From an uncultured Pseudomonadales bacterium (lineage in GTDB: Bacteria > Patescibacteriota > Microgenomatia > UBA1400 > UBA1396): a stretch of DNA of 64,000 nt. Shown in pieces: positions 9,535 through 53,430 of the stretch (position 1 is the stretch's first letter; every line of letters begins with the position of its first letter). The translations under genes and the position numbers were made by a program. Location of the stretch: assembly GCA_964447905.1 (NCBI GenBank), contig CAYUUK010000007.1, positions 513-64,512 on the forward strand. Direction: 5' to 3'. Below the pieces are notes generated by a model, which was not told the origin of the DNA, made no database searches, and was given only the letters and a program-made list of their open reading frames with translations.

Positions 9535-9589
9535 ATTCGTGCAGAGAATGCTGTACAATAATTCTCCACAACGAAGACATTGAGGTATA

Positions 9590-9745: not shown

Positions 9746-9780
9746 CTTCTTGTTTTTGGACACTGTACTCTTGAGAAGTG

Positions 9781-10256: not shown

Positions 10257-10282
10257 AACGAAGCTGTAGTGTAGCGTACTCT

Positions 10283-11188: not shown

Positions 11189-11215
11189 ATGTGCATCATA
11201 GCGTACACTGGCAGT

Positions 11216-11503: not shown

Positions 11504-11513
11504 AGGACACACG

Positions 11514-12281
11514 ATGTTACCATTTTTTCTGTTTTTATTGATTGGAGTGGCCACCATTGCCCTGGCTTCTATTAAGCAAATAAATCACTACGAGCGTGGT
11601 GTGGTGTATACCATGGGAAAGTATGCCGGTATGTTGAACCCGGGGTGGCATATCGTTTGGCCTATTTTTCAGGCAATGCAAAAAGTGGATATGCGTACCA
11701 AAGCGGTGGATGTACCTAAGCAAGAAACGATCACCAAAGATAATGTGTCTTGCAAAATGAATGCGGTTATTTACTACAAAGTGTCCGAGGCGGATAAGAC
11801 CATTAACGAAGTGGAAAATGTGTTTTATGCGGTGTCACAGTTGGCACAAACTACTATGCGGCGTATTGCTGGTGAAGCTACGTTAGATGAATTACTTTCT
11901 AATCGCGAAAAAATTGCCAATGAAATTTTACGCACCATTGATCCAATCACAGACGAGTGGGGTATCGATGTGGAAACAGTTGAGTTGAAAGACATTGAAT
12001 TGCCTGAGTCGATGATTCGTACTATGGCAAAACAAGCTGAGGCGGAGCGTGAGAAGCGGGCCACGATTATCAGCTCCGAAGGTGAGGTGCAAGCCGCCAA
12101 TAATCTCTCACAAGCAGCGCAAGTGATGATGTCTAGCCCGGGCGCTCTACACTTGCGTACGCTCAACTCGATTAATGATATTTCTTCAGATCAGTCAAAC
12201 ACGGTAGTGTTTGCCGTTCCGCTCGAGGTGCTCCGTGCAGTCGAGGGAATTTCAGAGATGTGGCAAGGAAAGCAGCGCTGA
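11514..12281 (+). CDS. SPFH/band-7 (stomatin/HflC-like) membrane protein
   Basis: N-terminal TM followed by YERGVVYTMGKY...PGWHIVWPI...VDMRTKAVDVPKQETITKDNV, the SPFH signature; AGGA ribosome-binding site. Confidence 0.75.
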   Translation: MLPFFLFLLIGVATIALASIKQINHYERGVVYTMGKYAGMLNPGWHIVWPIFQAMQKVDMRTKAVDVPKQETITKDNVSCKMNAVIYYKVSEADKTINEVENVFYAVSQLAQTTMRRIAGEATLDELLSNREKIANEILRTIDPITDEWGIDVETVELKDIELPESMIRTMAKQAEAEREKRATIISSEGEVQAANNLSQAAQVMMSSPGALHLRTLNSINDISSDQSNTVVFAVPLEVLRAVEGISEMWQGKQR

Positions 12282-12298
12282 CTTTTTACGAAGGAAGG

Positions 12299-13312
12299 TT
12301 ATTTCCCGGTGATCAACACGGCGAACCCAGCGTTGGCAGCCGTACAGGCGTAGGGAAACTCTCGGCTTTGAATGAGTGCTTTGTGGCCGAGGCTTTGGTC
12401 CCAACCCCACTCGACTGCTTGCACTGCTGTCTCATATCCTGCTGCTAAGTTTTCGTTTATGCTTGTCCAAGTTGGGTTGTCCTCAAAGAACTGGTCAGCG
12501 CGGGCATCAAACCCATCGTGATTATCCAGGCGGCCAAGGGCGAGTTGCTCGTTTACGCGAATGCTCGCCACGGTACACAGTTGATTTGACTGCTGGAACT
12601 CCGGCAGTCCGTGAGCCCGGCGATAGGTTTGCACTGCGGACCATAAGTCTTCGCCGGTATAGGTTGGTGCTCGAGTACTGGCTTGTGTTGGTGCACTGGG
12701 AGCCAACTGCTCGGAAGGGAACTCACTGGCCAAAATGATGGTCAAAATGGTGCCGGGAACACCTTCAAGCATTGCCGAGCGAGTAGCAACTCCAAGTTCT
12801 GTGAGTGCAGTGTTGGTGATACTCTCCTCCTGACTGAGCTCATCAGAGAGAGAAAATCTTCCGCGATTTGGCGCAAACAAGGAAAGGATTTCCACCTTTT
12901 GCGGCGGATTCGTAGTAAGACTGTCCAGTATTTCTTGGGAGTTTGACACACTCAGTTCGCCACGGTCTTCGATTTCGAGGGTGAGTAAGCGGGCAAATTT
13001 TTCGAGTGTATTGTTTGCTGAAGCGCTGGCAACTTCAGACTCGAGTCGAATTTGTGCAATTGTCTCGGACGCGACAGCTGCGCTGTATGTTTGTTTTTCC
13101 TCTAGTGGTTGTCCGGAACTGTTTCGATAGCTTGCCAAGTGGGGAGTACTCAACTCCTGTACCCAGGTTTGAAAAGGCTGAATCAGCTGTTGAGATGTGG
13201 AGGAAACAGCCCCAATTTTATCTTGCGTGACCAGGAGCGCAAAAACTGCGGCACTTCCGACCACCACGAGCCCGGCTGAAGTAATGAAGGATCGCCAGGA
13301 AGGGAGTTTCAT
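12299..13312 (-). CDS. membrane-anchored secreted protein with C-terminal CAP (SCP/YkwD-like) domain
   Basis: N-terminal TM; the C-terminal block GHKALIQS...YACTAANAGFAVLITGK resembles a CAP domain. Confidence 0.45.
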   Translation of the reverse strand: MKLPSWRSFITSAGLVVVGSAAVFALLVTQDKIGAVSSTSQQLIQPFQTWVQELSTPHLASYRNSSGQPLEEKQTYSAAVASETIAQIRLESEVASASANNTLEKFARLLTLEIEDRGELSVSNSQEILDSLTTNPPQKVEILSLFAPNRGRFSLSDELSQEESITNTALTELGVATRSAMLEGVPGTILTIILASEFPSEQLAPSAPTQASTRAPTYTGEDLWSAVQTYRRAHGLPEFQQSNQLCTVASIRVNEQLALGRLDNHDGFDARADQFFEDNPTWTSINENLAAGYETAVQAVEWGWDQSLGHKALIQSREFPYACTAANAGFAVLITGK

Positions 13313-13322
13313 GATTGGGGTT

Positions 13323-14180
13323 CTATGGAGTCGACGAGGTTTGCGCATTCGTTTGTTTCAGAGCTTGGTTCAGTTTATCGTTGTTGAGAATCAGGCTCGG
13401 AGCGTACGGGCGATCAGCTGTTTCGTTGTAGGTGTGAACGCTGCTTTGTTGGAGCGTTTGGGTGAGTCCGAGTGAATCACGGATTTCTTCAGCGAGCGAG
13501 AAGTCAGAGTACACGGTGTCGCTCGTGGCGTGAAAAATACCGGTTGGTTGGTGCTCAATCGCCCATCTGATAACTTCAGCAAACCACTCAATTGGAGTGA
13601 GGGTGAAAAAGTGATCGGAAAAGAACGGGCCAGTTTTTCCGGCCTGAAGCGCTTGCGCAATCTTGTGCCAGATGTCTGGTTTGGCAAATTCATCCTGTCG
13701 GTACGGAAAATTAATTCGAAAAATAGTGGCGGTGGGAATGACTTCGGCGATGACTTTTTCTGCGGCTAACTTTGTTTCCGCATACCAGTCAATAGGGTTG
13801 GTGGCATCGGTTTCGAGGTAGGCGGTTTCTTTGGTTCCGTCGAAAACGTATCCTGTGGAGAGGTGAATGAGGTGTACTCCATGACGAGCACACGCTTCCG
13901 CAATATTGCGGGTGCCTTCCACATTCACTTGGTAGACCACTCCAGATGTGTCACCGGCTTCTTTTTGGGCGGTGTTGAGATCTGTGAACGCGGCCAAGTG
14001 GAGCAGTGTCTTGGCAGGAGAGCGCGCAATAATGTCCTCAATCTGGTTGGCATCGAGGATATCGATTCCTTCGGTGCGGTCTAGATTGATGAATGCGTAC
14101 TCATCACTGAGCATCTCAACAATTTTCGTGCCAACGAGACCGGAAAGTCCGGTGCCGAGTACTGGTTTCTTTTCAGCCAT
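13323..14180 (-). CDS. rfbD: dTDP-4-dehydrorhamnose reductase
   Basis: GTGLSGLVG Rossmann motif; YAETK catalytic YxxxK; RmlD-like length. Confidence 0.8.
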   Translation of the reverse strand: MAEKKPVLGTGLSGLVGTKIVEMLSDEYAFINLDRTEGIDILDANQIEDIIARSPAKTLLHLAAFTDLNTAQKEAGDTSGVVYQVNVEGTRNIAEACARHGVHLIHLSTGYVFDGTKETAYLETDATNPIDWYAETKLAAEKVIAEVIPTATIFRINFPYRQDEFAKPDIWHKIAQALQAGKTGPFFSDHFFTLTPIEWFAEVIRWAIEHQPTGIFHATSDTVYSDFSLAEEIRDSLGLTQTLQQSSVHTYNETADRPYAPSLILNNDKLNQALKQTNAQTSSTP

Positions 14181-14201
14181 TCTTTGCCTACTTTCTCTTC
14201 T

Positions 14202-14732
14202 TTAGCCCTTGGTTACTTCCCACATTTCTGGACCAAAGAAGTCCCAGGGGAGTCGACCTTCGTCAGGATCTTCGGCATTAAATTGATTCGTGACAAAGTA
14301 GAAAAGACTCTGTGGCTCGTGCCAAGGATTACTCCCACCATGTGCTACTCCCGCGGGAATGCGCAAGAGGGTATTGCTATAGCCACCCAAGATGAGACGC
14401 ATGTGATTATTTTTTGTCGGAGAGTCTTCGCGGACGTCTACTAAGTTGACGAGAATGCGGTTGTAAGGAGGCACATACCAAAGATCTTCTTGATTTCTAT
14501 GGATATGAAAGGCCTTAATCACGCCTGGTAAAACAAGCGACAGGCTGGCCTGTCGTACCTCGAAGTTTTCCAGTCCTTCTACAAAACCATCAGTGAGTCG
14601 GACAATTTCGGTAAAATTTCCCGAGTCATCACGAAAGAGCGGTTGAGTAATAACATCTACACCCGCAATTTGGCTTTTTTCCGTGTAGCCCTGAGTGGTT
14701 ATCGCTGGTTGGTATTCTTGAGCAATTTGCAT
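14202..14732 (-). CDS. rfbC: dTDP-4-dehydrorhamnose 3,5-epimerase-like cupin
   Basis: FHIHRNQEDLWYVP...LLRIPAGVAHG is an RmlC-type cupin signature; position between rfbB and rfbD. Confidence 0.6.
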   Translation of the reverse strand: MQIAQEYQPAITTQGYTEKSQIAGVDVITQPLFRDDSGNFTEIVRLTDGFVEGLENFEVRQASLSLVLPGVIKAFHIHRNQEDLWYVPPYNRILVNLVDVREDSPTKNNHMRLILGGYSNTLLRIPAGVAHGGSNPWHEPQSLFYFVTNQFNAEDPDEGRLPWDFFGPEMWEVTKG

Positions 14733-14733
14733 G

Positions 14734-15747
14734 TTATTGGTCTCCGTACTGTTTTTTATAGTAATCCTGATAGTTACCAGACTTCACTCGTCGCCACCAG
14801 TCTTCATTTTCTCGATACCAGGTAATTGTTTTTTGCAGTCCTTCCTCGAGGGTGACCGAAGGTTCCCAGCCGAGATCAGCCTGGGTGGTGCTCCAGTCAA
14901 CTGCATAGCGGCGATCGTGACCAGGTCGGTCTTTGACATAGGTAATGAGCGATTCATCGGCACCCATGAGCTCTAGCAGCATTTTGACTACATCAATGTT
15001 TGCGATGTCTTCACTCATTCCACCAACTAGATAGGTATGGTTTTCTTCACCATGAAGCAGCACTGCTTCAATAGCGCGGCAGTGGTCTTCTACGTAGAGC
15101 CAGTCACGCACATTCAAACCATCGCCATACACGGGCACCGGTTGATTGTCCATGATATTAGTAATGACCAGCGGGATGAGTTTTTCTGGGAAATGGTACG
15201 GACCGTAGTTGTTGGAACAATTGGTCATGGTCCATGGTAGTCCATACGTTTCACCGTACGCTCGTACGAAGTGGTCGCTACTGGCTTTACTGGCTGAATA
15301 GGGGCTGCGAGGATCGTAGTGAGTATTTGGGGTGAATTTCTCTTCTGATCCCAGTTCAAGTGAGCCAAAGACCTCATCGGTAGAGATGTGATGAAAGCGC
15401 TGTACTTCTAGCTCGCGGGCGGCTTCCAATAGCACTTGTGTGCCGACAACGTTTGTTGTCACAAAGGCAGAAGGGTCAAGAATGGAACGATCTACGTGCG
15501 ACTCGGCTGCAAAGTGGACAACCATATGTGCTCCAGCCATAGCTTCACGAACCGCTTCAGGATCACGGATGTCCCCTTTGATAAAGGTATAGTTTTCTTC
15601 GTTCTCTAGGCCGGAAAGGTTTTCGAGATTGCCTGCGTAGGTAAGTAAGTCAAAGTTAACAATATGATCTTCTGGATGGTGTGTATGCCAATAACGAACA
15701 AAATTTGATCCAATAAACCCGGCTCCGCCGGTAACAAAAAGTTTCAT
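14734..15747 (-). CDS. rfbB: dTDP-glucose 4,6-dehydratase
   Basis: MKLFVTGGAGFIGSNFV, YSASKASSDHFVRAY (YxxxK) and the extended-SDR RmlB architecture. Confidence 0.9.
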   Translation of the reverse strand: MKLFVTGGAGFIGSNFVRYWHTHHPEDHIVNFDLLTYAGNLENLSGLENEENYTFIKGDIRDPEAVREAMAGAHMVVHFAAESHVDRSILDPSAFVTTNVVGTQVLLEAARELEVQRFHHISTDEVFGSLELGSEEKFTPNTHYDPRSPYSASKASSDHFVRAYGETYGLPWTMTNCSNNYGPYHFPEKLIPLVITNIMDNQPVPVYGDGLNVRDWLYVEDHCRAIEAVLLHGEENHTYLVGGMSEDIANIDVVKMLLELMGADESLITYVKDRPGHDRRYAVDWSTTQADLGWEPSVTLEEGLQKTITWYRENEDWWRRVKSGNYQDYYKKQYGDQ

Positions 15748-15782
15748 GTGTGCCCTCTCTGTGCTCTCTATTGTACTGGTTT

Positions 15783-16022
15783 TTACGTGTTTTGTGCCTG
15801 TTCTAGCAAGAGAACAGTTTTTTCATTGAAACGTTCTCCTTTGGAGAGTATGAGGTCTGACGGGCGAACATGCAAGTGCTTCGCCAGGGCTTTGAGCATA
15901 GCTTTATTGGCTTTGCCTTTTTGCGCAGGTTGGGTAACATAGACTCTAAAGCTGGTTGGAGACTGCGCTTCTACACGTTCGCGCTTTGCTTGAGGAACGA
16001 CCATGATGGATAATACTTTCAT
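15783..16022 (-). CDS. DUF167 (YggU-family) protein
   Basis: MKVLSIMVVPQAKRERVE...YVTQPAQKGKANKAMLKALAKHL matches the DUF167 pattern. Confidence 0.55.
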   Translation of the reverse strand: MKVLSIMVVPQAKRERVEAQSPTSFRVYVTQPAQKGKANKAMLKALAKHLHVRPSDLILSKGERFNEKTVLLLEQAQNT

Positions 16023-34368: not shown

Positions 34369-34441
34369 GCCACCTTAGCTCAGTTGGTAGAGCGGCGCTT
34401 TTGTAAAGCGTAGGTCGTGGGTTCGAGTCCCACAGGTGGCT
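34369..34441 (+). tRNA. tRNA-Thr (anticodon UGU)
   Basis: A cloverleaf was folded by hand. Acceptor GCCACCT/AGGTGGC, D stem GCTC/GAGC, anticodon stem GCGCT/AGCGT with loop TTTGTAA, T arm GTGGG-TTCGAGT-CCCAC, discriminator T. No encoded CCA. Confidence 0.85.
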
Positions 34442-34564
34442 CTCTGAGAAAGAAATTCCAAGGCGCGGTTGGGGACCCCGCCGCCGCATGTGGTTTTTAC
34501 CACATGCTCTGGCACCCCAAAGCACCTCGTAATTCCTTGCTCAGAGAACTAAAAATATTCCTAC

Positions 34565-34892: not shown

Positions 34893-35987
34893 ATGCGTGC
34901 CCGGCTCATTAGTGTATTTTTTATTATTTTCCTTTTTTTTGGTGTGAACGCATCGTTTGTTTCTGCACAAGTTTTAACTGGGCGCTGTCTTGATAACTCA
35001 ATTGCGGCTACAGAAAATCACTTTGGCTGTAGTTTGCAGGGTGGTGGACTCGGTTCCACGCAAACACCGCGGTGGTCGTATGACGCCACAGATGATTTTG
35101 CTTGTAATGAAGGATTTGACGTAGATTTTGCTGCCTGTTCCGGAACCGCTCCTGTGTGTGGGGTAGGAGAGGAAAACTGCTGTTTGCCGTGTGCTCCAGA
35201 AGTGACCGAGGAGAGTGTTGGTCACGGAGGTTCCTGTGCGAATGGAGAAACCTGTGACTCGAATGCCTTACTCGTATGTCGAGCAGACCAGTGTTTGCGG
35301 AGGGTGGACTCTGTTTCCTTAGGTGGTGTTTGTTTTGATCAAAGTGAGTGTGGGATAGATTCTGGTCGGCCTTTAGTATGTGAAGAAGGACAGTGCCGCT
35401 TGCCAGCGGATGAGTTTGATCCCTGTACTGATGACGCCTTTTGCCAAGCTGAAACCGGCAATGCGCTCGCTGTTTGTAACCCGGTGAGCGGAACGTGTGT
35501 GGTATCGGTGTGTGAGTCGAATGCACAGTGTCGACAGGCATTGGGTGATGAAAACGCGATATGTAATGAGGCCACAGGGGCTTGTGTTATCAATGACAGT
35601 GAAGTTGCTGTAGAGGAAGAAGTGATTGATTTTAGTTACTGTTTGCAAGTGCCTGATGGGAATCAGCGCCGCAGCTGTGAGCAGTGTATTGAGCAAGGCG
35701 AAGAAGGTGAGTATGCTTACACGGCGGTGGGTTGTGTCCGCACCAATGGTCAAGGACTGACGGAAGACTTAGTTCGTTTACTCATGGGTGTTTCTGGCGG
35801 TGTAGCTATCATGAGTGACCTGGCAGGTGCATTTCTCCTCTCGGTTTCACGCGGTGACTCCTCGAAGGTAAAGGAAGCAAAAGACCTTATTACTGCTTCT
35901 ACTAGTGGACTCTTTTTCATTATTTTCTCGATATTCATTCTGCAGTTTGTGGGCGTATCCATTTTGCAAATACCTGGACTGGGATAA
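34893..35987 (+). CDS. secreted Cys-rich protein with a C-terminal two-TM pilin-like anchor (possible TrbC/VirB2-type CPR pilin family)
   Basis: Signal peptide, about 40 Cys in the ectodomain. The C-terminal hydrophobic-charged-hydrophobic module is about 84% identical to that of the next gene. Confidence 0.5.
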   Translation: MRARLISVFFIIFLFFGVNASFVSAQVLTGRCLDNSIAATENHFGCSLQGGGLGSTQTPRWSYDATDDFACNEGFDVDFAACSGTAPVCGVGEENCCLPCAPEVTEESVGHGGSCANGETCDSNALLVCRADQCLRRVDSVSLGGVCFDQSECGIDSGRPLVCEEGQCRLPADEFDPCTDDAFCQAETGNALAVCNPVSGTCVVSVCESNAQCRQALGDENAICNEATGACVINDSEVAVEEEVIDFSYCLQVPDGNQRRSCEQCIEQGEEGEYAYTAVGCVRTNGQGLTEDLVRLLMGVSGGVAIMSDLAGAFLLSVSRGDSSKVKEAKDLITASTSGLFFIIFSIFILQFVGVSILQIPGLG

Positions 35988-36036
35988 GAAAACGTCACAT
36001 TTTTTCTCTGCTCGAAGCCTGCTATAGTGATAAGAG

Positions 36037-37659
36037 ATGCGTTTTCTGGGAACCCTCCTTGTTGGTATTGTACTGAGCAGTCTGTTTGCTCCACTCGTTT
36101 GGGCCCAGAATGGCTGTGCTGTGCCTGGTATTACTGGTTTTGAGCAGAGCCAAGCGCCCAATGGCGATTACGACCTTTTTACTTTCACCGGGTGTGTTCC
36201 CAACAGTTCGTATGACGATTTTGTTATCTCATTTTTCGATGCTTCCAATATTATGCTGCAAGAGAATATTGAGTTTACTCCCAGTATTGGTCCCGACGGA
36301 TCGTTTCGAGTAGAGCTCGATGCTTCTTTCCCAGAAGGAACGACCATGAACTACCAGCTCATTGTTGACGGCCAGCAGATTGGGAGTCTGGGATCTGTGT
36401 ACGTTGACTATACATTTGTAGAAGCTGAGGTAGTGAATCCGGCCTGTTCCGAAACACAAGAGTGTACTACAGCAGATGGTCAGCCCGGCTCAATGGAGTG
36501 TAGCGGAGAGCAAATAAATGGAGCGTGTGAACTGCAGAGTTGCGGAACCTGTATATCCGTAGCCGATCCAGTGCAGGAAGAGGATGTGCGCGAAGCGATG
36601 CCAGTAACGGTGCCAGAAAACGATGGCGAACCGGATATTTCCCAACAAGATCCCGATGCGGATATTATTGATTTTAGTTACTGTTTACAGGTGCCAGACG
36701 GGACTCAGCGCAGCAACTGTGAGCAGTGCATTAGCCAGGGTGAAGATGGCGAGTATGTGTATACAGCGGTGGGGTGTGTGCGTACCGCTGGCGCTGGTCT
36801 CACGAGAGATTTAGTTCGGCTGATGATGGGCGCGGTTGGTGGTGTTGCCATAATGAGCATCTTGGCCGGTGCATTCTTTTTAAGCATTTCGAGGGGAGAC
36901 TCCTCCAAAGTGAAAGAAGCCAAAGAGCTTATAACGGCGGCGGTTTCTGGTTTGTTCTTCATAATTTTCTCGATATTTATTCTTCAATTTGTAGGAGTGT
37001 CCATTTTGCAGATACCTGGTTTGGGTGGTAGTGGCGGACAGGGTGCGGTTCGACCAGTTTTTGATGATCCGAATATTCAAGGTGGGGGGCAAATTGGCGG
37101 AGGCAATCCGGCCGAGCCTGTGGCCGAAAATCCACCCGCAGTTCCAGCGGAGCCACAAGACACTGAGTGGCAACCAGAAGATGTGCAGTGGAGCACCAGT
37201 GTGGCGGATGACGGTTTTGTCGAGGTGTGTATTACCTATCCTCAGGCAGGTGTAGCTGACAACACGATTGGTGTGCGAGCAACTCCGTCTGTCTCGGGGT
37301 CTTCGTATCCGGTGTTTGAGTGGAGTTTGGGTGCGGCGCAAAAAGTGGCTGGCGAGCGGTATCGCCAGTGTGGTTCAGTTAATATCGAGTCGTACGCTGC
37401 AGAAGTTGTGGAGAATATCTATGAAAATCAGTTTGGATCGAGTCAGTCATTCCAAGGTGGTGTGATCGATGGTGGGCAGTTTAGTTACTCTGTTGGCGTG
37501 AGTCAAGTAGGAGCGGCTGATCCGAATGTCTCCGCTGCTGAGCGTGAGGCGTTTTTGAATGCTCTCCAGTCGCAAAACGCGCTCTTGCGAGTGGAGTATG
37601 CAGTAAATGGACAAACGTATACTGATTTTTCCATTCCGTTTGTAGGGATTGGTGGATAA
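36037..37659 (+). CDS. secreted Cys-rich protein, paralog of 34893..35987, with the same pilin-like module plus a 210 aa Gly-rich-linked C-terminal domain
   Basis: Signal peptide; IDFSYCLQVPDG...FIIFSIFILQFVGVSILQIPGLG shared with the upstream gene; GGSGGQ linker. Confidence 0.5.
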   Translation: MRFLGTLLVGIVLSSLFAPLVWAQNGCAVPGITGFEQSQAPNGDYDLFTFTGCVPNSSYDDFVISFFDASNIMLQENIEFTPSIGPDGSFRVELDASFPEGTTMNYQLIVDGQQIGSLGSVYVDYTFVEAEVVNPACSETQECTTADGQPGSMECSGEQINGACELQSCGTCISVADPVQEEDVREAMPVTVPENDGEPDISQQDPDADIIDFSYCLQVPDGTQRSNCEQCISQGEDGEYVYTAVGCVRTAGAGLTRDLVRLMMGAVGGVAIMSILAGAFFLSISRGDSSKVKEAKELITAAVSGLFFIIFSIFILQFVGVSILQIPGLGGSGGQGAVRPVFDDPNIQGGGQIGGGNPAEPVAENPPAVPAEPQDTEWQPEDVQWSTSVADDGFVEVCITYPQAGVADNTIGVRATPSVSGSSYPVFEWSLGAAQKVAGERYRQCGSVNIESYAAEVVENIYENQFGSSQSFQGGVIDGGQFSYSVGVSQVGAADPNVSAAEREAFLNALQSQNALLRVEYAVNGQTYTDFSIPFVGIGG

Positions 37660-37686: not shown

Positions 37687-39855
37687 TTAGTCTTCGAGTC
37701 GAGAGATGGTGTCGCGAATCTGTGCCGCTAGCTCAAAATTCCAGTCTTTGGCCGCATTGTTCATGACACGTTGCAGTTTGCGCGTGAGTGATTTTTTGTC
37801 GCTCGGCGTGAGTGTGGCAGGTTCGATGGACTCCAAAACGAGGGACTCTGTTTTATTGAGTTCGACTACTGTGCCCTGTGGCGTGGCGGTCTTTTCAAAT
37901 GGTTGCTGGTGCGTTTTTTCTTTGAGTGTAAACACTCCTGGTGTTGTGGACGGGGTGGTGCGTTTAATGAGTTGTTCCCGGATTGGTTTGGCGATGGTTG
38001 TGGGGGTAATACCGTGCTCTTCGTTATACGCGATTTGGATTTCGCGGCGGCGCTCGACTTCATCGATGGCGGCCTGCATGGACTTGGTCATGCGGTTAGC
38101 GTAGAGAATGACGCGGCCTTCCACGTGACGCGCGGCGCGACCCATGGTTTGGATGAGCGAGCTCGTGGAGCGCAGGAAGCCTTCTTGGTCGGCGTCCAAA
38201 ATGGCTACCAGAGTGACTTCTGGCAGGTCGAGGCCTTCCCGGAGGAGGTTTACCCCAATGAGCACGTCGTAGGCGCCACGACGGAGTTGCTCGAGGATCT
38301 CGCTGCGGTCGATGGTATCGATATCGGAGTGCAGATACTGCACTTTGGGGAGTTCCACATTGTGCCAGTCAATCTCGTAGCCGTGGTCTTTGAGGAGTTT
38401 TTCCACTTTCGATTTGTTGTTGAGGTACTGGGTCAGCACTTCAGCCATTTTTTTGGTGAGGGTGGTGACTAAAACGCGTTGGCCGCGTTCTTTGCGCACA
38501 AAAATTTCGTGAATGAGGTTGGGAATTTGGCCATCGACGGAGCGAATTTCTACCGGCGGGTCAACTAAACCCGTTGGCCGGACAATTTGCTCGACGACAT
38601 GGTGCTGGCTTTGTTCGATTTCCCACTCGTTGGGTGTGGCCGACACGTACATGGTTTGGTCGAGCCGGTCTTGAAACTCATGGAACTGCAGCGGACGGTT
38701 ATCAATTGCTGCCGGCAAGCGGAATCCGTACTCGATGAGGGTTTCCTTTCGTGAACGGTCGCCAGCGTACATGCCACGGACTTGTGGGGCGGTAATATGG
38801 CTCTCATCAAGAATAGTTAAGAACTGGCCGTCCCCAAACTTTTTGGCGTTGTAGTGGAAGTAGTCTAAGAGCGTGAACGGTGGTTCGCCTGGCTGGCGGC
38901 CGTCAAAGTAGCGGGAGTAGTTTTCGATGCCGTTCACAAATCCAACTTCGCGAATCATGTCTACGTCGTGGAGAGTGCGTTGTTCCAGGCGATAGGCCTC
39001 GACGACCTTGTTTTGCGCTTTGAGTTCTTCAACGCGTTGACGCATGTCGGTCTCGATTTGGGTGAGTGTGTCATGTACGTCGGTACCGGCAATGTAGTGT
39101 TTGGCCGGGTAGAGGCGAGTGCGTTTCGGGGCGTAGTCGCCGGTCATGGGGACCGGTTCGTTCCAGCGCTCGCCATTCGTGGGGTCAATGCGGTCGAGGC
39201 GTTCGATGGTGTCGGCGGGCATGGCGAGTGAGAGGGCCCAATTTTCGTTGGCGGGCCAGATTTGGATACGGTCACCACGAATGCGGAAGGTACCACGCAA
39301 GAGGTCGGCGGTAGTCCGCATGTACTGCATGTCAATCAAACGCTGAATGAGTGTTTGGCGGGAAATAATTTCGCCTTCAATAAGGTCGAGCGCGTGTGTC
39401 GCAAAGTCTTCCGGTTTTCCCAAGGCGTAGATACACGATACAGAGGAGACGACAATAGTGTCTGGGCGGGAGAGTAAGTTGGCTGTGGCCCCGAGGCGAA
39501 GTTTGTCGATTTCGTCGTTGATGGTGGCCTCTTTTTCGATGTAGGTGTCGCTGCTCACAATATAGGCTTCAGGTTGGTAGTAGTCGTAGTACGACACAAA
39601 GTAGCTGACGGCGTTGTCTGGGAAAAAGTCGCGGAACTCTTGGTAGAGCTGCGCGGCGAGGGTTTTGTTGTGGGCAATGACGAGTGTGGGTTGTTGCAGG
39701 TTCTGGATAACTTGCGCCATAGTATACGTTTTCCCAGAGCCAGTAACTCCCAACAGAACCTGATCCTTTTGACCGCTGCGGTACTGCTCGGTGAGCTGCT
39801 CGATGGCCTTGGGTTGGTCACCGGCTGGCTGGTAAGAAGATTTGAGGGAAAACAT
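37687..39855 (-). CDS. uvrB: excinuclease ABC subunit B
   Basis: LLGVTGSGKT Walker A; YFVSYYDYYQPEAY beta-hairpin; C-terminal UVR domain. Confidence 0.95.
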   Translation of the reverse strand: MFSLKSSYQPAGDQPKAIEQLTEQYRSGQKDQVLLGVTGSGKTYTMAQVIQNLQQPTLVIAHNKTLAAQLYQEFRDFFPDNAVSYFVSYYDYYQPEAYIVSSDTYIEKEATINDEIDKLRLGATANLLSRPDTIVVSSVSCIYALGKPEDFATHALDLIEGEIISRQTLIQRLIDMQYMRTTADLLRGTFRIRGDRIQIWPANENWALSLAMPADTIERLDRIDPTNGERWNEPVPMTGDYAPKRTRLYPAKHYIAGTDVHDTLTQIETDMRQRVEELKAQNKVVEAYRLEQRTLHDVDMIREVGFVNGIENYSRYFDGRQPGEPPFTLLDYFHYNAKKFGDGQFLTILDESHITAPQVRGMYAGDRSRKETLIEYGFRLPAAIDNRPLQFHEFQDRLDQTMYVSATPNEWEIEQSQHHVVEQIVRPTGLVDPPVEIRSVDGQIPNLIHEIFVRKERGQRVLVTTLTKKMAEVLTQYLNNKSKVEKLLKDHGYEIDWHNVELPKVQYLHSDIDTIDRSEILEQLRRGAYDVLIGVNLLREGLDLPEVTLVAILDADQEGFLRSTSSLIQTMGRAARHVEGRVILYANRMTKSMQAAIDEVERRREIQIAYNEEHGITPTTIAKPIREQLIKRTTPSTTPGVFTLKEKTHQQPFEKTATPQGTVVELNKTESLVLESIEPATLTPSDKKSLTRKLQRVMNNAAKDWNFELAAQIRDTISRLED

Positions 39856-39949
39856 GAAGGTCTATTATAGCAGGCAGAAAAAAACGAAACTGGTCGCCTT
39901 TTTATGACACTTGCTTGTGTGTCTTTCGGTGTGTTATGCGTTGGTGAGG

Positions 39950-41707
39950 TTACTCAATGTACTGGAATGAACCCTCGACCACTCGAAGCCCTGGAATAGG
40001 GGTGGAAGAAGAAGTAGCTGATGGTGTTTCACTGGTTTGTGCTGGTTGGAGGGTGTTGATGAGCCGGCGCAGCGTAGCAATTCCAAATGCGAGTCCAGTT
40101 CGAGCGACGGTTAAGGAGTGGTCGATGGAAAACTCTCCATCTTCTTCTTTGAGTTCGATAGCAAATTGGGTGAGTGTCTTTTGTGGCTGATCCTGACGAT
40201 TGGCTTCAACAGTACCTGTCGTTTGGGGTCCCTGAATAATTTCAATGTTGAGCTGTCTATTCTTAAAGAAATTCTTTCCTTGGTGAATGCGCGCTTCATA
40301 GGCGTATCCGTTTTCTGTCCATTGGAGTGCATACCCCTTGGAGGGGAGATTGCTCGGATTTTCTGGAGTTGTTGTTTCTGCGTTTTCTTCACAGAGGTTC
40401 CAGAGCTCTTGCGTTTGCTCCATGAGTTCTTCGGCATCCAGTCGAGCGTTTAGTTCCTGGAGGGTAAGGAGGTCGACATCGAGTTGGGTGAGAGGCCGCT
40501 CTTTTTGGCGTGGTTTTGCTTCGCGGTACTGGTAGGTTTGTTCGTTGGTTTTTTCTACGAGGGGATACAATTGCTCGGGCAAGAGGTACTCATGACGTGA
40601 AAGTGTCTCGGTTTTATTTGTATCTGAATTACGTTGAGTAACAGTGACTGTGATCTTTTTTTTGTCAGAAGAAGGTTGAATGATCAGATTTGTTCGTTCG
40701 CCAAGTGGAATGAGAGTGTGCTGGCTTTTAGTAATTTCATGAAGGAATCGCGTGCCTGGTTCATTTTTTACCCTGTACATATTAGGATTATTTTTTCTCT
40801 CTATAAGAACATTACTCGTGCCGCGCATGCCCGGACCTATTCCTAAAGATTCTTCTAAAGGTTGTGAAAAATATAACTCGATGTCCCAGAAGAGAGGGGA
40901 CTCAGCGTTCTTGTCATCGGTTTTTTCTCTTGTAAAAGTTACTTTCTCTCTTATTCGTGGATCACTAAATATTTTTGGTTGCTCTTCTTTTGGGATTGGG
41001 CGTGAAGTTTCTTCTAGGAATTCCTTCTTAGACATCGGCCAAAGTAAGTATGGTGAGTCTAGTTTGGCTATAGGTTTAGGATTTTCTAGATGCTGCCGTA
41101 TTACTGATTGTCTTGTTAGATGAGTGTCTACTTTGCCTAATACAAATTGTAAGGATTCTTGCAGTGATGGATCTTGTAAAAGAACTGGCTCTTTTGCTTT
41201 ATTGGCACTGTAGCCAGTATTAACGAAATACACTGATCCACTCGGTGCGACCGACGGATCAACCGCGGCGTGAACGAACTGAGTCTTAGTAAGGAGTTGG
41301 GTTGGCACTCCATTTTCAAATTGAATTACTGAGATATCGGCATGCCAGTGTGGTGAGTCAGAAGATGATTGCGCTGCCTTTTTTGCTATTTTGAACTGGA
41401 AGCCGCGGGTGCCTTCCTTGGTTCTCCATTTGTAAAATATCAAAATACCTTCGTTTTTTTCAATTTCTGCACCATTCGAAATAATTTCATTAACGATGTC
41501 ATTCTTTACAATTTGGTCTATCAATTGAGCTATTTTTTGAATGCTTGGCTCTGCCTCAGCCTCAACAAGTTTAAAGTTTCTCCCTTCAGTAAGGGGAACG
41601 AAATCAGGAAATGCTTTTTTGGCAGGGCTCTCCTTGGGCCAGTACGCAAGGTTTGGTCCTGGGTATTCACGGACGGTTGGTGTGCGCTTTCGAATTGCTT
41701 TTACCAT
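39950..41707 (-). CDS. hypothetical protein (orphan), low GC, divergent from lexA
   Basis: 585 aa ORF, no recognisable domain, no TM; GC is visibly lower than the surroundings. Confidence 0.45.
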   Translation of the reverse strand: MVKAIRKRTPTVREYPGPNLAYWPKESPAKKAFPDFVPLTEGRNFKLVEAEAEPSIQKIAQLIDQIVKNDIVNEIISNGAEIEKNEGILIFYKWRTKEGTRGFQFKIAKKAAQSSSDSPHWHADISVIQFENGVPTQLLTKTQFVHAAVDPSVAPSGSVYFVNTGYSANKAKEPVLLQDPSLQESLQFVLGKVDTHLTRQSVIRQHLENPKPIAKLDSPYLLWPMSKKEFLEETSRPIPKEEQPKIFSDPRIREKVTFTREKTDDKNAESPLFWDIELYFSQPLEESLGIGPGMRGTSNVLIERKNNPNMYRVKNEPGTRFLHEITKSQHTLIPLGERTNLIIQPSSDKKKITVTVTQRNSDTNKTETLSRHEYLLPEQLYPLVEKTNEQTYQYREAKPRQKERPLTQLDVDLLTLQELNARLDAEELMEQTQELWNLCEENAETTTPENPSNLPSKGYALQWTENGYAYEARIHQGKNFFKNRQLNIEIIQGPQTTGTVEANRQDQPQKTLTQFAIELKEEDGEFSIDHSLTVARTGLAFGIATLRRLINTLQPAQTSETPSATSSSTPIPGLRVVEGSFQYIE

Positions 41708-41829
41708 GTTTGCTCACTATAGTATTTTTCCATTTTAAAAACAAGAATTCAGTTTGTATGTTTTGAGATAGTTTTGATACTGAAAGATGATATTTACAAC
41801 GCTCCTTCATTTTGGGTATTGTATGTGTA

Positions 41830-49348: not shown

Positions 49349-50122
49349 GTGAAATCCAAACAGAATACACAGCAAATTTCTTTAGTGCGTAAGCACTCTG
49401 ATCGTTATAATTCAGGAGTGACTGGGCGTTCTGTAAAGAAATCCGAAAGCGCAAAATCACTATTGGAGAAGTTACAGAATAGGTATACCGCATTTTCTGA
49501 GTGGATTTCTTCCCCACGTTCGCGCCGGTGGCGAGAAAAAGCTTTGTATTCTCTTGGAGTGAGTGTGGTGCTTGTTGGGGCAATAGCGGTATATATTACA
49601 TCGTTTACGAGCTTTGATTGGCGACAGTGGGCCTGGGGAGGTTCGCAGTTTTCAGGTGAGCAACTTTCCAGAGCGAGTGTTGTGAACCCGCAACTGATTG
49701 CTGTTGGGGAGCCAGAAGTGGCGGAGTTATTTACTGATCTTACATATCTTTATCCCCAAGCAGATATTTTGAATGTTCAAGATGATGAATTCGGCGTGAG
49801 CGTGGTAGCCGCGAAAGCCTTTGATGCAGAGTTACAACAAACACTGCTCTTTATTCGAGTAGAAAACGCACCGTTTTTGGAAGGAAGTATTCCCAAAATA
49901 TGGGTGAAAACACGAGATGGTCAAAACATTGAGGCTGGGGTGGGTGAGTATTTACTTGAGAATGGACAAGTGGTTGCGTACTTTATTACAACGGTTGAAG
50001 GGAGTGACGATATTTATAAAAGTGCTTCCTTAACACTTGATACGTTTCTTGATCAAGTTCAACCGTCTCCTGCTTTTTTTGTAGCGAATTTTGCTGATGA
50101 AGACACGGAGGTTTCATTATGA
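49349..50122 (+). CDS. membrane-anchored hypothetical protein
   Basis: Basic cytoplasmic head, one TM, extracytoplasmic domain; its stop overlaps the next start (ATGA). Confidence 0.35.
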   Translation: MKSKQNTQQISLVRKHSDRYNSGVTGRSVKKSESAKSLLEKLQNRYTAFSEWISSPRSRRWREKALYSLGVSVVLVGAIAVYITSFTSFDWRQWAWGGSQFSGEQLSRASVVNPQLIAVGEPEVAELFTDLTYLYPQADILNVQDDEFGVSVVAAKAFDAELQQTLLFIRVENAPFLEGSIPKIWVKTRDGQNIEAGVGEYLLENGQVVAYFITTVEGSDDIYKSASLTLDTFLDQVQPSPAFFVANFADEDTEVSL

Positions 50123-53100
50123 ACCGATTTGCTCGTCAGCTTGTTCTTGGCATATTTTTCGCAATTGGAGCATTTTTCTTATTTGCAACGACACCGGTTT
50201 ATGCGCTCTGTGATGGTTGGGCCAGTCCTGGGACAACACATCGAAATAACGGAAATGGGTGTTACTACACGTGCAGCGGTGACAGCTGGAGTGGACCGAC
50301 CAAATGTGATGGCGGTGGAGATGGTGAGTGTCAAGGATGCCAGAATGCGAGTAAAGAGGATGCCGCCCGAGCAGTGAAGCAACGGCAAAAAGAAGCTGAG
50401 AAAAAGATCGAAGAGCAAGGTGGCCTCAATAGTGAAGAAACAAAAAAAGTGCGAAGAGAGACTCAGCAGAAGTATGGTCAATCTGCACTCAACTCATCTG
50501 CTGCGCCGCGTGACGAAGATACTGCGGCGACAGAGTTAGCTGTTGTGGGACAAGAGTGTGATCCGAATTCAGGAAGTGCGGGCACTGTTGGCCCTGGTGG
50601 CCGATGTTGTATAGGTGGCGTAGTGGAGTGTAGTGCTGACACGAACGGAGTGTGTGGCGGCGGTATCGACCGTTTTGGTACGTATGGCGTGTGTGGCACG
50701 AAACCACGTTGTGGGGACGGCTTTGCTTCAGTACATGAATGCAGTGCTCCAAATGTCTGTCCGCGTGATTACAAATACTGTGCTGAGCAAGGTTTCGAGC
50801 AACCAGCAGAGGAAACAGTTGAACAAAAAACAGAGGAGTATCATCGAGAACGCTTTGATGAGCTCACCCAAGAGTGTCTCTTCGGCGAAGATGAGCTGCT
50901 CGAGGGAAATCTCAATGCAGATTGTGTTGGGCAACTCAGTCGAACAACACAAATTCTCACTGATGAAGGTGCTGATGAATCAGAATTAGAAAATCTAGTG
51001 GAACGGCGGCGAACCCTTGGAAATTACTACACCGCTGTCTATAGAGCTGCGCAAGCTGAAACACTTTGTGGCGGTGATTCTCAAGCCTGTGCCGAGGCTC
51101 GATCCGCTGCAAATGCTGAAGTAGCCCGCACCGAAATTGCCGTAACACAAGCGTTTTCCAAGAGTGTAGTAAATAAAGCCAAACGCTCGGCCGAGAAATA
51201 CAAAGAACAGGTCCAGACATTTACCCAAGAGCGTGTGGCAAAAAGTAGTGACTTACCGACAACGATGCGGTCCATTACCCAAAAGTGCGCCGCTGAGAGC
51301 AGTGCGGATGCGCAAGAACGGTGCTTGCGTGTGCAACTGCGCGTGCAGTTAGGTCTCGATCTCGACGATTCTGGCCAATTTGTTCAAGCTGAGGACAGCA
51401 CGTACTATCAGCAGTTTTGTGATGCGGCCGTGGTGCGCGAGGGTGCAGGGCACTGTCGACAAGAGCGAGCAACCGTTGCCGCCAACATACTGGCCCAGCA
51501 AGATGCCATTCCACAAATTACCGTAGCGCGAGGTGTGTGTAATTTCCCGGGAGGTTGCGAGTGTGAACACTATGGCATTCAAGTTAATGAGGGAGATCAG
51601 TGTTACAGCGAAGGATTTGACTGGGTGCGTGACTCTGCAGTAGCCCAGCAAGTACCAGACTGTGGTGGCGAGGGACAGGTGGCTTGTGGTGATGCAAGTC
51701 AAGTCTGTGATCCGGGAAATGATTTCCATGCGGGTACGAATCGTTGTTGGCAATCTGAGCGTGTGCGTGAGCTCGAAGCACAGGAGTCTCAACGAGATAC
51801 CTCTGCTCCATCTCGAAGTGAAGAGGACTACATTGAGTATCTCGATGCGGGAGAAGAGTGGGAGTTTTCCTATACTGGCAACGCTGTTGTGTGTGCTGGT
51901 GGTTCTGAACTGTTAGTGAACTACGATAGTCGCGGAAATATTACCACGCAGGCTTGTGTATCCTCTGACGATTTGAGAGAGATCGATGAAAATGAACTTT
52001 GTGCGGCAACTGGCAGAAATGGAGCCTGTCGTTGTAGCAGTAATGGGGCGGTGATAGATGCTGGATTGCGTTGTCCCAGTTCGTCTCAATTCACAGCGGA
52101 CTCACTCGAGAGTTGTCCTGTTGGCAATAGAGAGAGACTCACAGTGTTTTCTGAAACACTGGAAAATGGTATCCAGTGTCGTTTGGGAGCTGGTCTAGCA
52201 AATACGTGTCGGCCAGGCTTTGAGTATGTGTCGGGTAATGGTGGGGCACGATGTGTAAGAATTGATGATTTTTCGGAGTTTGGTCAGGATGCATTAGTAA
52301 GTCCTTCCGAGCAAGATCCATTAGTTTCTGTAGCCTCAGATTCAGCTGTGCTGCCGCCTAGGGAAGAAGTATCGAGTTCCGCAGATTATGGAGATGTATG
52401 GGCAAGTCCGGCTCGCCGCTCAGTGGAACCCATAGTTGTTGAAGAGATAACTTTGGCAGAGACGTATCAGGATGCACAATCTCGAGCAGATTCACTTGAT
52501 GGCTGTGGTGGGAATGAGCAGTACATGTGTTCCTTCGAAATTAATGGAACCGAAGTTCGCTTGTGCAAATCGTGGACCAGATTGGACTCCGTTTCCAAGC
52601 TTTGTTATACACCGGAGCGCTATGAAGCCTTACGCCAACGTCTCACAGAGGATGCCACTGCAGAGCGGTCTGAGCGCCAGGCAGCTGGATACGAACAATG
52701 CTCATCTGGCGAAGTCTCAGCAAATGGCTGTTTGCGAGAAAATGGTCGACTTACAGGACAAAGCTGTGTGTACTCTGATTCTCAAGAGTCAGCAAATACA
52801 TTTATTGCTCTCATTGACAGCGAGCTGTGTAGAGACCAGCAAGAGGAGGAACAAGCAGCGAGAGAAGCGCGGGCTTCGGCTTTTGTAGAAACTATTAATA
52901 CACTCAGTAGTACTGTTTCTGAGACCGTGACAGTGCTTTGGACAGGTGTACTCGGCCGTGCAGAGGCACAGAACAGAGAACAGATTGATACTCTCGCTCA
53001 GAGTGCTCAAGCCGAGCAAAACAAAATTGCGACGGGTAACTCAGTACAAGCTGTGGCTCGATTACGCGAGCGATACGAAGATTTATCTCGGCGGTGTGGT

Positions 53101-53430
53101 TGGGTGCGAACCGATGTTCCAACCGCCTGTACAGAAGTGCTCCCTTCCTTAGCTGAACTGCCTTGGAGTGAGTCGAATGAAACCGTTCGAAGGACTCTTG
53201 TGGAAGAGCGGGGAAATGCCTTTCATAATCGCGAAGTTTTTGCCGAAAACACCGAGTACATTGTGTGTGGCGAAAACGAAAATGGCACACCATACTACTG
53301 TTGTCCAGGGAATACGCTTTCAGAAATGAATGATGACGGTGGAGTTGAGTGTGTATCCCTTCCAGAGCAAGGACCGGCGCTGCCACCTGAAGAACCGCTC
53401 TCTACAGCAGCACCAGATGGCGCGGAATGA
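50119..53430 (+). CDS. very large secreted Cys-rich protein (orphan)
   Basis: 1103 aa with a signal peptide (MNRFARQLVLGIFFAIGAFFLFATTPVYA). More than 70 Cys, acidic, no TM anchor, no recognisable domain. Confidence 0.5.
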   Translation: MNRFARQLVLGIFFAIGAFFLFATTPVYALCDGWASPGTTHRNNGNGCYYTCSGDSWSGPTKCDGGGDGECQGCQNASKEDAARAVKQRQKEAEKKIEEQGGLNSEETKKVRRETQQKYGQSALNSSAAPRDEDTAATELAVVGQECDPNSGSAGTVGPGGRCCIGGVVECSADTNGVCGGGIDRFGTYGVCGTKPRCGDGFASVHECSAPNVCPRDYKYCAEQGFEQPAEETVEQKTEEYHRERFDELTQECLFGEDELLEGNLNADCVGQLSRTTQILTDEGADESELENLVERRRTLGNYYTAVYRAAQAETLCGGDSQACAEARSAANAEVARTEIAVTQAFSKSVVNKAKRSAEKYKEQVQTFTQERVAKSSDLPTTMRSITQKCAAESSADAQERCLRVQLRVQLGLDLDDSGQFVQAEDSTYYQQFCDAAVVREGAGHCRQERATVAANILAQQDAIPQITVARGVCNFPGGCECEHYGIQVNEGDQCYSEGFDWVRDSAVAQQVPDCGGEGQVACGDASQVCDPGNDFHAGTNRCWQSERVRELEAQESQRDTSAPSRSEEDYIEYLDAGEEWEFSYTGNAVVCAGGSELLVNYDSRGNITTQACVSSDDLREIDENELCAATGRNGACRCSSNGAVIDAGLRCPSSSQFTADSLESCPVGNRERLTVFSETLENGIQCRLGAGLANTCRPGFEYVSGNGGARCVRIDDFSEFGQDALVSPSEQDPLVSVASDSAVLPPREEVSSSADYGDVWASPARRSVEPIVVEEITLAETYQDAQSRADSLDGCGGNEQYMCSFEINGTEVRLCKSWTRLDSVSKLCYTPERYEALRQRLTEDATAERSERQAAGYEQCSSGEVSANGCLRENGRLTGQSCVYSDSQESANTFIALIDSELCRDQQEEEQAAREARASAFVETINTLSSTVSETVTVLWTGVLGRAEAQNREQIDTLAQSAQAEQNKIATGNSVQAVARLRERYEDLSRRCGWVRTDVPTACTEVLPSLAELPWSESNETVRRTLVEERGNAFHNREVFAENTEYIVCGENENGTPYYCCPGNTLSEMNDDGGVECVSLPEQGPALPPEEPLSTAAPDGAE

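Follow-up and report, generated by a model that had tools for sequence, protein, structure and literature searches.

Tandem pilin-like proteins with unrelated ectodomains in a Patescibacterial genome

Two adjacent genes, A and B, in a 64,000-nucleotide stretch of the genome of an ultrasmall bacterium of the Microgenomatia/Woesebacteria lineage (the whole stretch is referred to here as the window) appear, from their sequences, to encode members of a large subfamily of VirB2-like pilin proteins of the PF18895 type in Patescibacteria. On balance, A and B are probably Sec-exported, type IV secretion system (T4SS)-associated pilin-like adhesin subunits with variable tips. Four observations form the basis of this reading: homology of their two-helix hairpin to pilins encoded in T4SS operons, the place of the corresponding gene at the head of a pilin array beside PrgI-TrsD-VirB4 in many relatives, the purifying selection that acts on the shared module, and shuffling and replacement of the ectodomains attached to it.

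Two exported proteins built around one module

Gene A (34893..35987, + strand) encodes a 364-aa protein and gene B (36037..37659, + strand) a 540-aa protein; both open reading frames of the pair, originally predicted to be adjacent paralogs, were confirmed. They lie in tandem on the same strand with 49 bp between them, as do the two or more genes of a published Patescibacterial pilin array (PMC12102498), and a promoter/terminator scan found nothing above chance to clarify the operon structure. The module HMM recovers A at E 9e-57 and B at E 8e-57.

A begins with a signal peptide of the Sec/SPase I type (aa 1-25, MRARLISVFFIIFLFFGVNASFVSA, followed by Q; 34893..34967, +), which falls within a hydrophobic segment spanning residues 1-29; cleavage is placed between A25 and Q26 by eye, from the A-x-A rule rather than with a prediction tool, and AF2 models a helix at residues 2-18, then low pLDDT at 19-24. 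The ectodomain (aa 26-244; 34968..35624, +) contains 24 Cys in repeated units of a helix and a β-hairpin, delineated from Cys positions, recurrence and AF2, and ends in an acidic linker. The conserved module (aa 245-364; 35625..35984, +), defined by alignment and AF2, consists of a 4-Cys knob, helix 1 (aa 286-318), the charged loop SRGDSSKVKEAK, helix 2 (aa 323-352) and an IPGLG end.

In B, ectodomains flank the module on both sides. A signal peptide (aa 1-23, MRFLGTLLVGIVLSSLFAPLVWA, followed by Q; 36037..36105, +), with a hydrophobic segment at 1-25 and a cleavage site between A23 and Q24 again assigned by eye, precedes an N-terminal ectodomain (aa 24-210; 36106..36666, +) which has 8 Cys and an acidic linker, is unrelated to that of A, and gave only a weak match, to the family member P0038 (E 4e-4). 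The module (aa 211-330; 36667..37026, +), delimited by AF2, alignment and hhalign, repeats the order of 4-Cys knob, helix 1 (aa 254-284), loop, helix 2 (aa 289-324) and IPGLG; in its AF2 model (pLDDT 72.5) the helices occupy module residues 44-74 and 79-114 and the loop 75-78. As had been predicted, B then runs on for 210 aa past IPGLG via GSGGQG; this C-terminal extension (aa 331-540; 37027..37656, +) comprises a Gly/Pro-rich linker and a domain of ~170 aa, predicted to be extracellular. The term Cys-rich, originally applied to the pair, suits A (24 Cys in the ectodomain and 4 in the module) and fits B less well (8 in the N-terminal part, 4 in the module and 2 in the extension).

Residues 245-364 of A (nt 35625-35984) and 211-330 of B (nt 36667-37026) are identical at 102 of 120 positions (85%, where about 84% over about 120 aa had been noted from the letters) and at 265 of 360 bases (73.6%). 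BLASTP of A against B detects this block (E 2e-56) and no similarity outside it, so the N-terminal parts are unrelated, as first proposed. The signal peptides are unrelated too, in contrast to the 85% identical modules, and over their full length the proteins have only about 19-28% of residues in common. The codon differences between the modules comprise 56 synonymous and 18 non-synonymous changes, with 62 at third positions, and NG86 estimates give a dN of 0.137, a saturated dS of 2.27 and a ratio of 0.06. Since flanking orthologs of the window genome and a syntenic Woesebacteria genome have dS values of 0.7-1.5, the synonymous divergence of the modules, which is at least as large, argues for an old split. 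The data support the original view of the module as an old duplicate held under purifying selection; recent gene conversion is ruled out by differences at 26% of bases, mostly third positions, and a simple history of duplication after speciation is rejected on the comparison of dS with the flanking orthologs. A third copy of the module was not found in six-frame translations of the window searched with cluster HMMs. Across 22 proteins of the subfamily the module has a mean column identity of 57%, with invariant loop and IPG residues. A constraint of this kind (85% identity and a dN/dS of 0.06 next to unrelated signal peptides and ectodomains) far exceeds what a plain membrane anchor needs.

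Relationship of the module to type IV secretion pilins

PF18895 (T4SS_pilin) is the only consistent Pfam match of the two proteins, covering profile positions 8-71 of 71 at 15.5 bits in A (E 0.019) and 21.4 bits in B (E 2.8e-4). As single sequences both are borderline and fall under the curated threshold; taken by itself, the B module scores 25.1 bits, where the gathering threshold is 26.6 bits. By the rule used in a published survey (i-Evalue < 0.001 and > 50% profile coverage; PMC12102498), whose Pfam version differs from ours, B gives E 2.8e-4 over 64/71 positions, and A gives E 0.019. The family as a whole is matched more broadly: 22/22 subfamily modules hit PF18895 at E <= 0.1, the best at 1.6e-6. 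When the module profile is aligned by hhalign with 36 short pilins from VirB4/PrgI loci, a 71-residue hairpin is matched at 98.3% probability (E 1.9e-14), with the motif S-x-G-D ... A-K/R ... I-x-x-A-x-x-G-L common to both. These short pilins all match PF18895 (36/36, best E 3.9e-14), 5/36 also match TrbC/VirB2 (PF04956) weakly, and the HMM built from them finds B at E 3.5e-12 and A at E 1.1e-9. A signal peptide and a two-helix hydrophobic hairpin are present, as hydropathy segments, in 22/22 subfamily members; the closest named relative bears the NCBI name 'pilin', and a fold search with the AF2 hairpin model lists an archaeal conjugative pilin (8dfu) among its top matches. Other comparisons gave little: B is only weakly similar to the NCBIfam Mbov_0395 pilin-like family (E 0.15), the module profile has chance matches only among PDB sequences (E >= 0.86), and neither A nor B matches PF04956 even at E <= 1.

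Judged from these alignments, the module is best classed as a divergent member of PF18895, the VirB2-like pilin family of Patescibacteria. The original prediction, that the two helices form a pilin-like module as in the CPR family, is borne out for PF18895 but not for TrbC/VirB2 proper; the HMM comparison with T4SS pilin, TrbC and VirB2 models that it suggested did return pilin similarity, with A and B themselves scoring under the Pfam threshold. For PF18895 proteins 'pilin' is a provisional name, because a T4SS pilus has never been observed in any Patescibacterium (PMC12857230, PMC10633639).

Proteins of this kind are already known, tandem VirB2-like arrays in Patescibacteria having been published in 2023-2025. 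Arrays of 2-11 genes are common, especially in Microgenomatia (Quinonero-Coronel et al., 2025, PMC12102498), and the 6-gene pilin array of Southlakia epibionticum is essential (Wang et al., 2023, PMC10633639; PMC12857230). A and B resemble the PF18895 arrays in their homologous hairpin with a short Ser/Gly/Asp/Lys loop, Sec signal peptide, tandem arrangement and lineage, and in that more distant members of their subfamily are found in PrgI-TrsD-VirB4 operons. Unlike the short PF18895 pilins (~100-170 aa), they are 364 and 540 aa long, carry large variable ectodomains, and possess two features absent from the short pilins, a 4-Cys knob and an IPGLG end that never varies. Identity between their modules is 85%, compared with a mean of 25% and a maximum of 54% in the reported arrays (PMC12102498), although full-length A and B fall to the low value given above. 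They also differ from array pilins beside virB4 in the absence of a nearby virB4 and in their sub-threshold single-sequence Pfam scores; pilins are encoded away from virB4 in ~40% of assemblies (PMC12102498). The domain-fused form of the pilin was not described in the literature searched.

The TrbC/VirB2 pilins of diderms (PF04956; e.g., F TraA, Ti VirB2 and RP4 TrbC) likewise combine a leader, two hydrophobic helices, a short positive loop and termini on the outer side, a topology that is predicted for A and B. Pilins of this family polymerise into an extracellular conjugative pilus with bound phospholipid, and their ends are processed or cyclised. In F and T pili the termini are exposed at the surface of the filament and the loop points into the lumen, and canonical VirB2 pilins are small. 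A and B differ from TrbC/VirB2 pilins in lacking a PF04956 match, in having a monoderm host and in their large fused domains. According to work cited in PMC12102498, Bartonella and Anaplasma encode variable tandem VirB2 paralogs, which are believed to alter what is exposed at the surface and so to serve host range or immune evasion. A and B, too, are tandem pilin paralogs; by contrast with those families, where variation lies inside a small pilin, their hairpin is constant and whole ectodomains are exchanged.

Gene neighbourhoods and the alternatives they raise

Neighbourhoods were analysed at 80 genome loci of related members. In about 35 of them, a Trans_reg_C gene is followed by a large ectodomain-bearing member, ~3 short pilins, and the genes for PrgI (VirB3, PF12666), a TrsD-like protein and VirB4 (PF19044/PF12846); loci of more distant subfamily members with virB4 or other T4SS genes next door number about 24-35. 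The large gene heads the pilin array, with 1-2 large genes per ~3 short pilins. The surroundings of the pair itself are different: A/B and their closest relatives sit amid housekeeping genes, Pfam scans and cluster HMMs on six-frame translations of the window detected no VirB4, PrgI, TrsD or short-pilin genes, in agreement with the expectation that it would hold no other T4SS components, and the closest relatives (loci L001, L003 and L006) have no T4SS genes or short pilins up to 10 kb away.

The detachment from T4SS genes, the sub-threshold PF18895 scores and the missing PF04956 match all count against a T4SS-associated role. The hairpin could instead be a membrane anchor only, conceivably with a part in oligomerisation or docking as well, which would leave A and B in the cytoplasmic membrane as ordinary surface adhesins or receptors that form no filament. 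This explanation, which we consider unlikely though deserving of real weight, accounts for the separation of A/B and their closest relatives from T4SS and short-pilin genes and for the lack of any observed Patescibacterial T4SS pilus (PMC12857230). It would also accommodate ectodomains of 190-220 aa and a further 210 aa at the C-terminus of B, which are awkward in a VirB2-type filament; a filament may not tolerate pilins with a 200-aa domain on every subunit. However, the hairpin is conserved beyond hydrophobicity, between A and B and across the 22 proteins down to the invariant loop and IPG, next to signal peptides that are unrelated, and more distant subfamily members head pilin arrays within VirB4 operons.

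Many close relatives adjoin cell-wall genes, and a different role could follow from this. In 28 loci a SpoIID/PcsB-like hydrolase gene lies directly upstream, in 20 loci UppS lies downstream, and in a further class the large gene comes after VanW-MraY-MurD-FtsW. These neighbours would suit cell-envelope or cell-wall proteins that work with peptidoglycan enzymes and are unrelated to type IV secretion, their likeness to PF18895 being one of hairpin shape. We regard this as quite improbable: the hhalign match and the common motif are specific at the sequence level, beyond shape; in the SpoIID/UppS class a short pilin still comes after the large gene, and at a distance of a few kb there are arrays of 5-9 short pilins; and a VirB1-like helper would equally look like a peptidoglycan hydrolase beside a pilin.

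Exchanged ectodomains and a proposed role

The ectodomains are modular and shuffled among members of the subfamily. That of A, modelled by AF2 at a pLDDT of ~75 and matching no fold among solved structures, is found again in at least 13 members of the family, with Cys positions invariant in 12 homologs; in the member P0080 it is placed after the module. A homolog search with it added a new relative, P0155 (41% identity), and found no clear occurrence outside the subfamily. Another Cys-rich secreted protein is encoded in the window at 50119-53430; it does not share the Cys repeats of A. The C-terminal domain of B has a homolog at the same junction in P0027 (41% identity over 196 aa, E 3e-37), a protein from an independent sample whose N-terminal domain differs from that of B; this sole relative came from a search of the representative library, and the homolog search with the domain returned nothing. 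Sequence before the module is the rule, with at least 100 aa in 145/155 subfamily proteins. Sequence after it is found in ~11 of the 150 best-matching family members, and at least 10 members other than B and P0027 bear other domains there. The interchangeable ectodomains originally envisaged are therefore seen in practice, as A's Cys-rich domain and B's C-terminal domain recur with different partners. Replacement is also evident at a fixed position: in a collinear Woesebacteria genome (flanks 75-84% identical in nucleotide sequence), the slot between L33 and UvrB, where A and B sit in the window, is taken by a single gene whose ectodomain is of another kind and whose module alone aligns (68%).

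Almost every family member stops exactly at IPGLG, as might be expected if the B tail were a read-through, frameshift or assembly fusion, yet such an artefact, or a recent conversion behind the A/B similarity, is very improbable, since the homologous extension in P0027 and a coding-like GC pattern by codon position (GC1>GC2) mark the tail as a real domain and effectively refute read-through, other members carry domains at the same place, and the modules differ too widely in bases, mostly at third positions.

In the T4SS-associated reading that we prefer, the Sec signal peptide would send the N-terminus of A and B out, with cleavage at the presumed sites, and the module would insert as a helical hairpin with its N-terminus outside, helix 1, a short Lys-rich cytoplasmic loop, helix 2 and the C-terminus outside. 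Given this predicted topology, domains fused before (A, B) or after (B) the module would be displayed on the cell exterior. The hairpin might then be recognised by a VirB4/VirB3/TrsD-type T4SS, presumably encoded elsewhere in the genome, and A and B might join short pilins of their family in a filament, where the bulky, fast-changing ectodomains could serve as tips or decorations that bind the target, a host cell. Given the size of these domains, a place at the tip or in low copy number is likelier than a main-subunit role. A low-copy, target-binding filament end of this kind would parallel VirB5-type tip adhesins and the bulky minor pilins of type IV pili and type II secretion, by functional analogy only: VirB5 is not a pilin paralog, whereas the putative A/B tip protein has the pilin hairpin, and there is no relationship in sequence or fold to VirB5-type proteins or minor pilins.

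A broader proposal is offered tentatively. The large members, in which a signal peptide and a variable ectodomain precede the 4-Cys knob and the pilin hairpin, and some of which have another ectodomain past the invariant IPGLG, might constitute a class of T4SS 'adhesin-pilins' that has gone unrecognised. As paralogs of the pilins they would sit on the Patescibacterial T4SS filament as caps or decorations and set which host cell is engaged, in the role of the missing VirB5/PrgB adhesins, and host range would be switched by swapping whole ectodomain cassettes at fixed positions in the chromosome.

Patescibacteria (CPR), which account for much of the diversity of bacteria, spend their lives attached to other cells, and in the sole species tested the T4SS is essential (PMC10633639, PMC11665869, PMC12857230). 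Should contact be made through pilin paralogs whose outer domains can be exchanged, these proteins would provide concrete candidates for host specificity that can be identified from sequence, and an unusual case of a VirB2-type pilin bearing large fusions at either end. The constant hairpin set against variable domains would offer an easy point of entry for experiments and a way to follow host switching at strain level in metagenomes.

The gene pair and its shared module

Two genuine open reading frames, ORF A (34893-35987, + strand, 364 aa) and ORF B (36037-37659, + strand, 540 aa), are spaced by 49 bp; they follow tRNA-Thr (34369-34442) and the ribosomal protein L33 gene (34618-34806) and converge on uvrB (37687-39855, - strand). 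BLASTP aligns a single block between the two proteins (E 2e-56) and detects no relatedness anywhere N-terminal of it. On exact comparison, A residues 245-364 and B residues 211-330 are identical at 102/120 positions (85%), and B runs on for 210 aa past the block. The original prediction of adjacent paralogs sharing a C-terminal module of ~120 aa (at ~84% identity) is confirmed almost to the letter, as are the unrelated N-terminal ectodomains and the 210-aa extension. There is no third module copy within the 64-kb window. The DNA of the block is 73.6% identical (265/360 bases) and carries the many synonymous differences anticipated, 56 synonymous vs 18 non-synonymous codon differences (dN 0.137; dS 2.27, saturated; ratio 0.06).

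A and B each start with a typical Sec-type signal sequence, probably cleaved, as read by eye, at ...SFVSA/Q and ...LVWA/Q, respectively. Next comes an ectodomain, which is variable, and then an acidic linker. In a 22-sequence module alignment, four Cys residues are invariant (C6, C18, C21 and C37, module numbering) and precede two long helices, joined by the loop S-R/Q-G-D-S-S-K-V-K-E-A-K, and an invariant I-P-G-L-G end. The AlphaFold2 model built from this alignment (pLDDT 72.5) predicts a small helix and β-hairpin knob, then a hairpin of helices 44-74 and 79-114; by hydropathy, 22/22 homologs share the same three hydrophobic segments. Because the N-terminus is exported and the loop is Lys-rich, an N-out, loop-in, C-out topology is expected, and the C-terminal 210 aa of B are therefore also predicted to lie outside the cell.

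Kinship with type IV secretion pilins

The sole Pfam match of A and B is PF18895 (T4SS_pilin), covering profile positions 8-71 of 71 and scoring under the 26.6-bit cut-off (A, 15.5 bits; B, 21.4 bits; B module alone, 25.1 bits); scanned singly, 22/22 homologous modules match it (best E 1.6e-6). The proposed similarity to pilin models thus held for PF18895, although A and B fall under its cut-off, and failed for TrbC/VirB2 (PF04956), which a Pfam search matched to neither protein. The nearest named relative in NCBI is ‘pilin [Candidatus Woesebacteria bacterium]’. A module profile search of 1.84 billion representatives returned 17,907 proteins at E <= 1e-3, of which 561 reach E <= 1e-30. Of 155 of the closest proteins, 145 have at least 100 aa N-terminal of the module, and in about 11 a real extension follows it; short members (146-168 aa) also occur.

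The module profile has no match among PDB sequences. The full-length A model (pLDDT 73) consists of repeated helix and β-hairpin Cys units and has no significant Foldseek match; the archaeal conjugative pilin 8dfu, one of the top fold matches, comes up again here (probability 0.72, E 3.9). The structure searches are compatible with a pilin fold, short of proof.

Genomic context was analysed at 80 reference-genome loci whose gene content is Patescibacterial throughout (Woesebacteria, Levyi-, Gottesman-, Davies- and Pacebacteria): ORFs were called and searched with the module HMM, neighbouring genes clustered and recurrent clusters annotated. Large, ectodomain-bearing members occur in three contexts. 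The first (about 35 loci) is a T4SS operon encoding, in this order, a 566-aa protein without assigned family, a Trans_reg_C protein, the large member, ~3 hairpin-only short pilins (100-200 aa), PrgI/VirB3 (PF12666), a TrsD-like protein and VirB4 (PF19044/PF12846). In the second (about 20 loci), a SpoIID/PcsB-like hydrolase, the large member, one short pilin and UppS are encoded in that order, often with 5-9 further short pilins in an array of their own a few kb off. In the third, the large member is detached and stands, alone or paired, in a housekeeping neighbourhood. It follows VanW-MraY-MurD-FtsW in L001, L006, L009 and other loci, and lies between L33 and UvrB in L003/L007 and the window.

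The operon is conserved in loci L044-L085 (e.g., L066 about 5000-16000; L077 1-7000), in the order 566-aa protein, 441-aa Trans_reg_C protein, large pilin-like gene, three short pilins, PrgI, TrsD-like and VirB4; an optional 1238-aa protein on the opposite strand is listed between the first two, and neither the 566-aa nor the 1238-aa family matches Pfam or NCBIfam. The records of many reference MAGs (L010-L086) bear the title ‘uncultured Pseudomonadales’ or ‘uncultured Gammaproteobacteria’ although the gene content of their loci is Patescibacterial, and these titles are probably wrong. One assembly, CAZRAG01 (L011-L014), has large pilin-like genes at no fewer than four separate loci, one pair including a 385-aa member in which the module lies close to the N-terminus and is followed by a 236-aa Cys-rich domain.

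All 36 context I short pilins match PF18895 (best E 3.9e-14), 5/36 also weakly matching TrbC, and their profile matches the window module with 98.3% probability (E 1.9e-14, profile-profile). On these grounds the A/B hairpin is, by sequence, homologous to pilins encoded within Patescibacterial T4SS operons; the likeness to a pilin-like CPR family suggested in the original prediction is thereby supported. Pfam scans and cluster HMMs on six-frame translations find no VirB4, PrgI, TrsD, SpoIID-type or short-pilin gene in the 64-kb window, as predicted. The main rival, that A and B are ordinary surface proteins on a pilin-derived membrane anchor, is possible if rather unlikely; members of their subfamily head T4SS pilin arrays in other lineages.

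Cell-wall genes repeatedly adjoin the large pilin-like genes, as SpoIID/PcsB-coiled-coil hydrolase plus UppS (L013, L016, L018-L024, L026, L030, L033-L039, L045-L048) or VanW-MraY-MurD-FtsW (L001, L006, L009, L014, L017, L040). This hydrolase may act as a VirB1-like helper, or the arrangement may be mere synteny. A cell-wall-linked role for A and B themselves is improbable.

Ectodomain exchange and locus history

The 24 Cys of the A ectodomain are conserved in position across 12 aligned sequences, and such ectodomains occur in 13 or more further members of the family, standing C-terminal of the module in P0080. In P0155, identity across this domain is 41%. P0027 carries a relative of the B C-terminal domain (41% identity over 196 aa, E 3e-37), and its N-terminal domain is Cys-rich and unrelated. 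Cys-rich repeats follow IPGLG in P0041, P0062, P0063, P0079 and P0080. This module end (35970-35984 and 37012-37026) is invariant throughout the subfamily; in B and no fewer than 10 further proteins, the C-terminal Gly/Ser linkers and additional domains are grafted on exactly here.

A Woesebacteria genome (GCA_021209405.1, locus L003) is collinear with the window over at least 20 kb (75-84% nt identity). A single gene occupies its L33-UvrB slot; the ectodomain of that gene is a different one, and the module alone aligns (68%). Because the A/B modules differ at dS ~2.3 (dN 0.137) vs 0.7-1.5 (dN 0.02-0.05) for flanking orthologs, the A/B split is, judged from these divergences, at least as old as the genome split, which favors the old duplication originally proposed over recent gene conversion. 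Since A and B are nonetheless closer to one another (85%) than to the syntenic gene (72-75%), cassette replacement at the L33-UvrB locus appears to fit better than a simple duplication history.

A second indel lies directly beside the pair: a 585-aa ORF (39950-41707, - strand) between uvrB and lexA, with no Pfam or NCBIfam match and no hydrophobic segment, is absent from L003 (window 39871-41783 = L003 13752-13846). GC3 of uvrB is 0.65 vs about 0.39-0.50 in neighbouring genes (local GC up to 0.54), yet it is still 84% nt identical to the syntenic Woesebacteria uvrB. Further along, a 257-aa single-TM protein (49349-50122, + strand) precedes a 1103-aa protein that contains 56 Cys and has a signal-like N-terminus (50119-53430, + strand), both without family match; on comparison, the latter is unrelated to the A ectodomain.

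A pilin variant with fused ectodomains

A recent survey reports 1,948 Patescibacterial assemblies with VirB2-like pilins, which lie near virB4 in 1,135 of them, and 441 arrays of 2-11 pilin genes, commonest in Microgenomatia and Saccharimonadia; it proposes adaptation to different hosts (Quinonero-Coronel et al., 2025, PMC12102498). The T4SS and its pilin genes have been shown to be essential in Southlakia (Wang et al., 2023, PMC10633639), and a 2025 review stresses that a pilus is no more than a possibility (PMC12857230). Large ectodomain fusions, a large paralog heading an array and C-terminal grafts were not found in the available text of the literature searched on Patescibacterial T4SS pilins; as far as found, the ectodomain-fused variant is new to the literature. 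A and B are new members of this widespread variant of Patescibacterial VirB2-like pilins, and their most likely mechanism, favored somewhat above even chances, is that of a T4SS-associated pilin-like subunit presenting variable binding domains.
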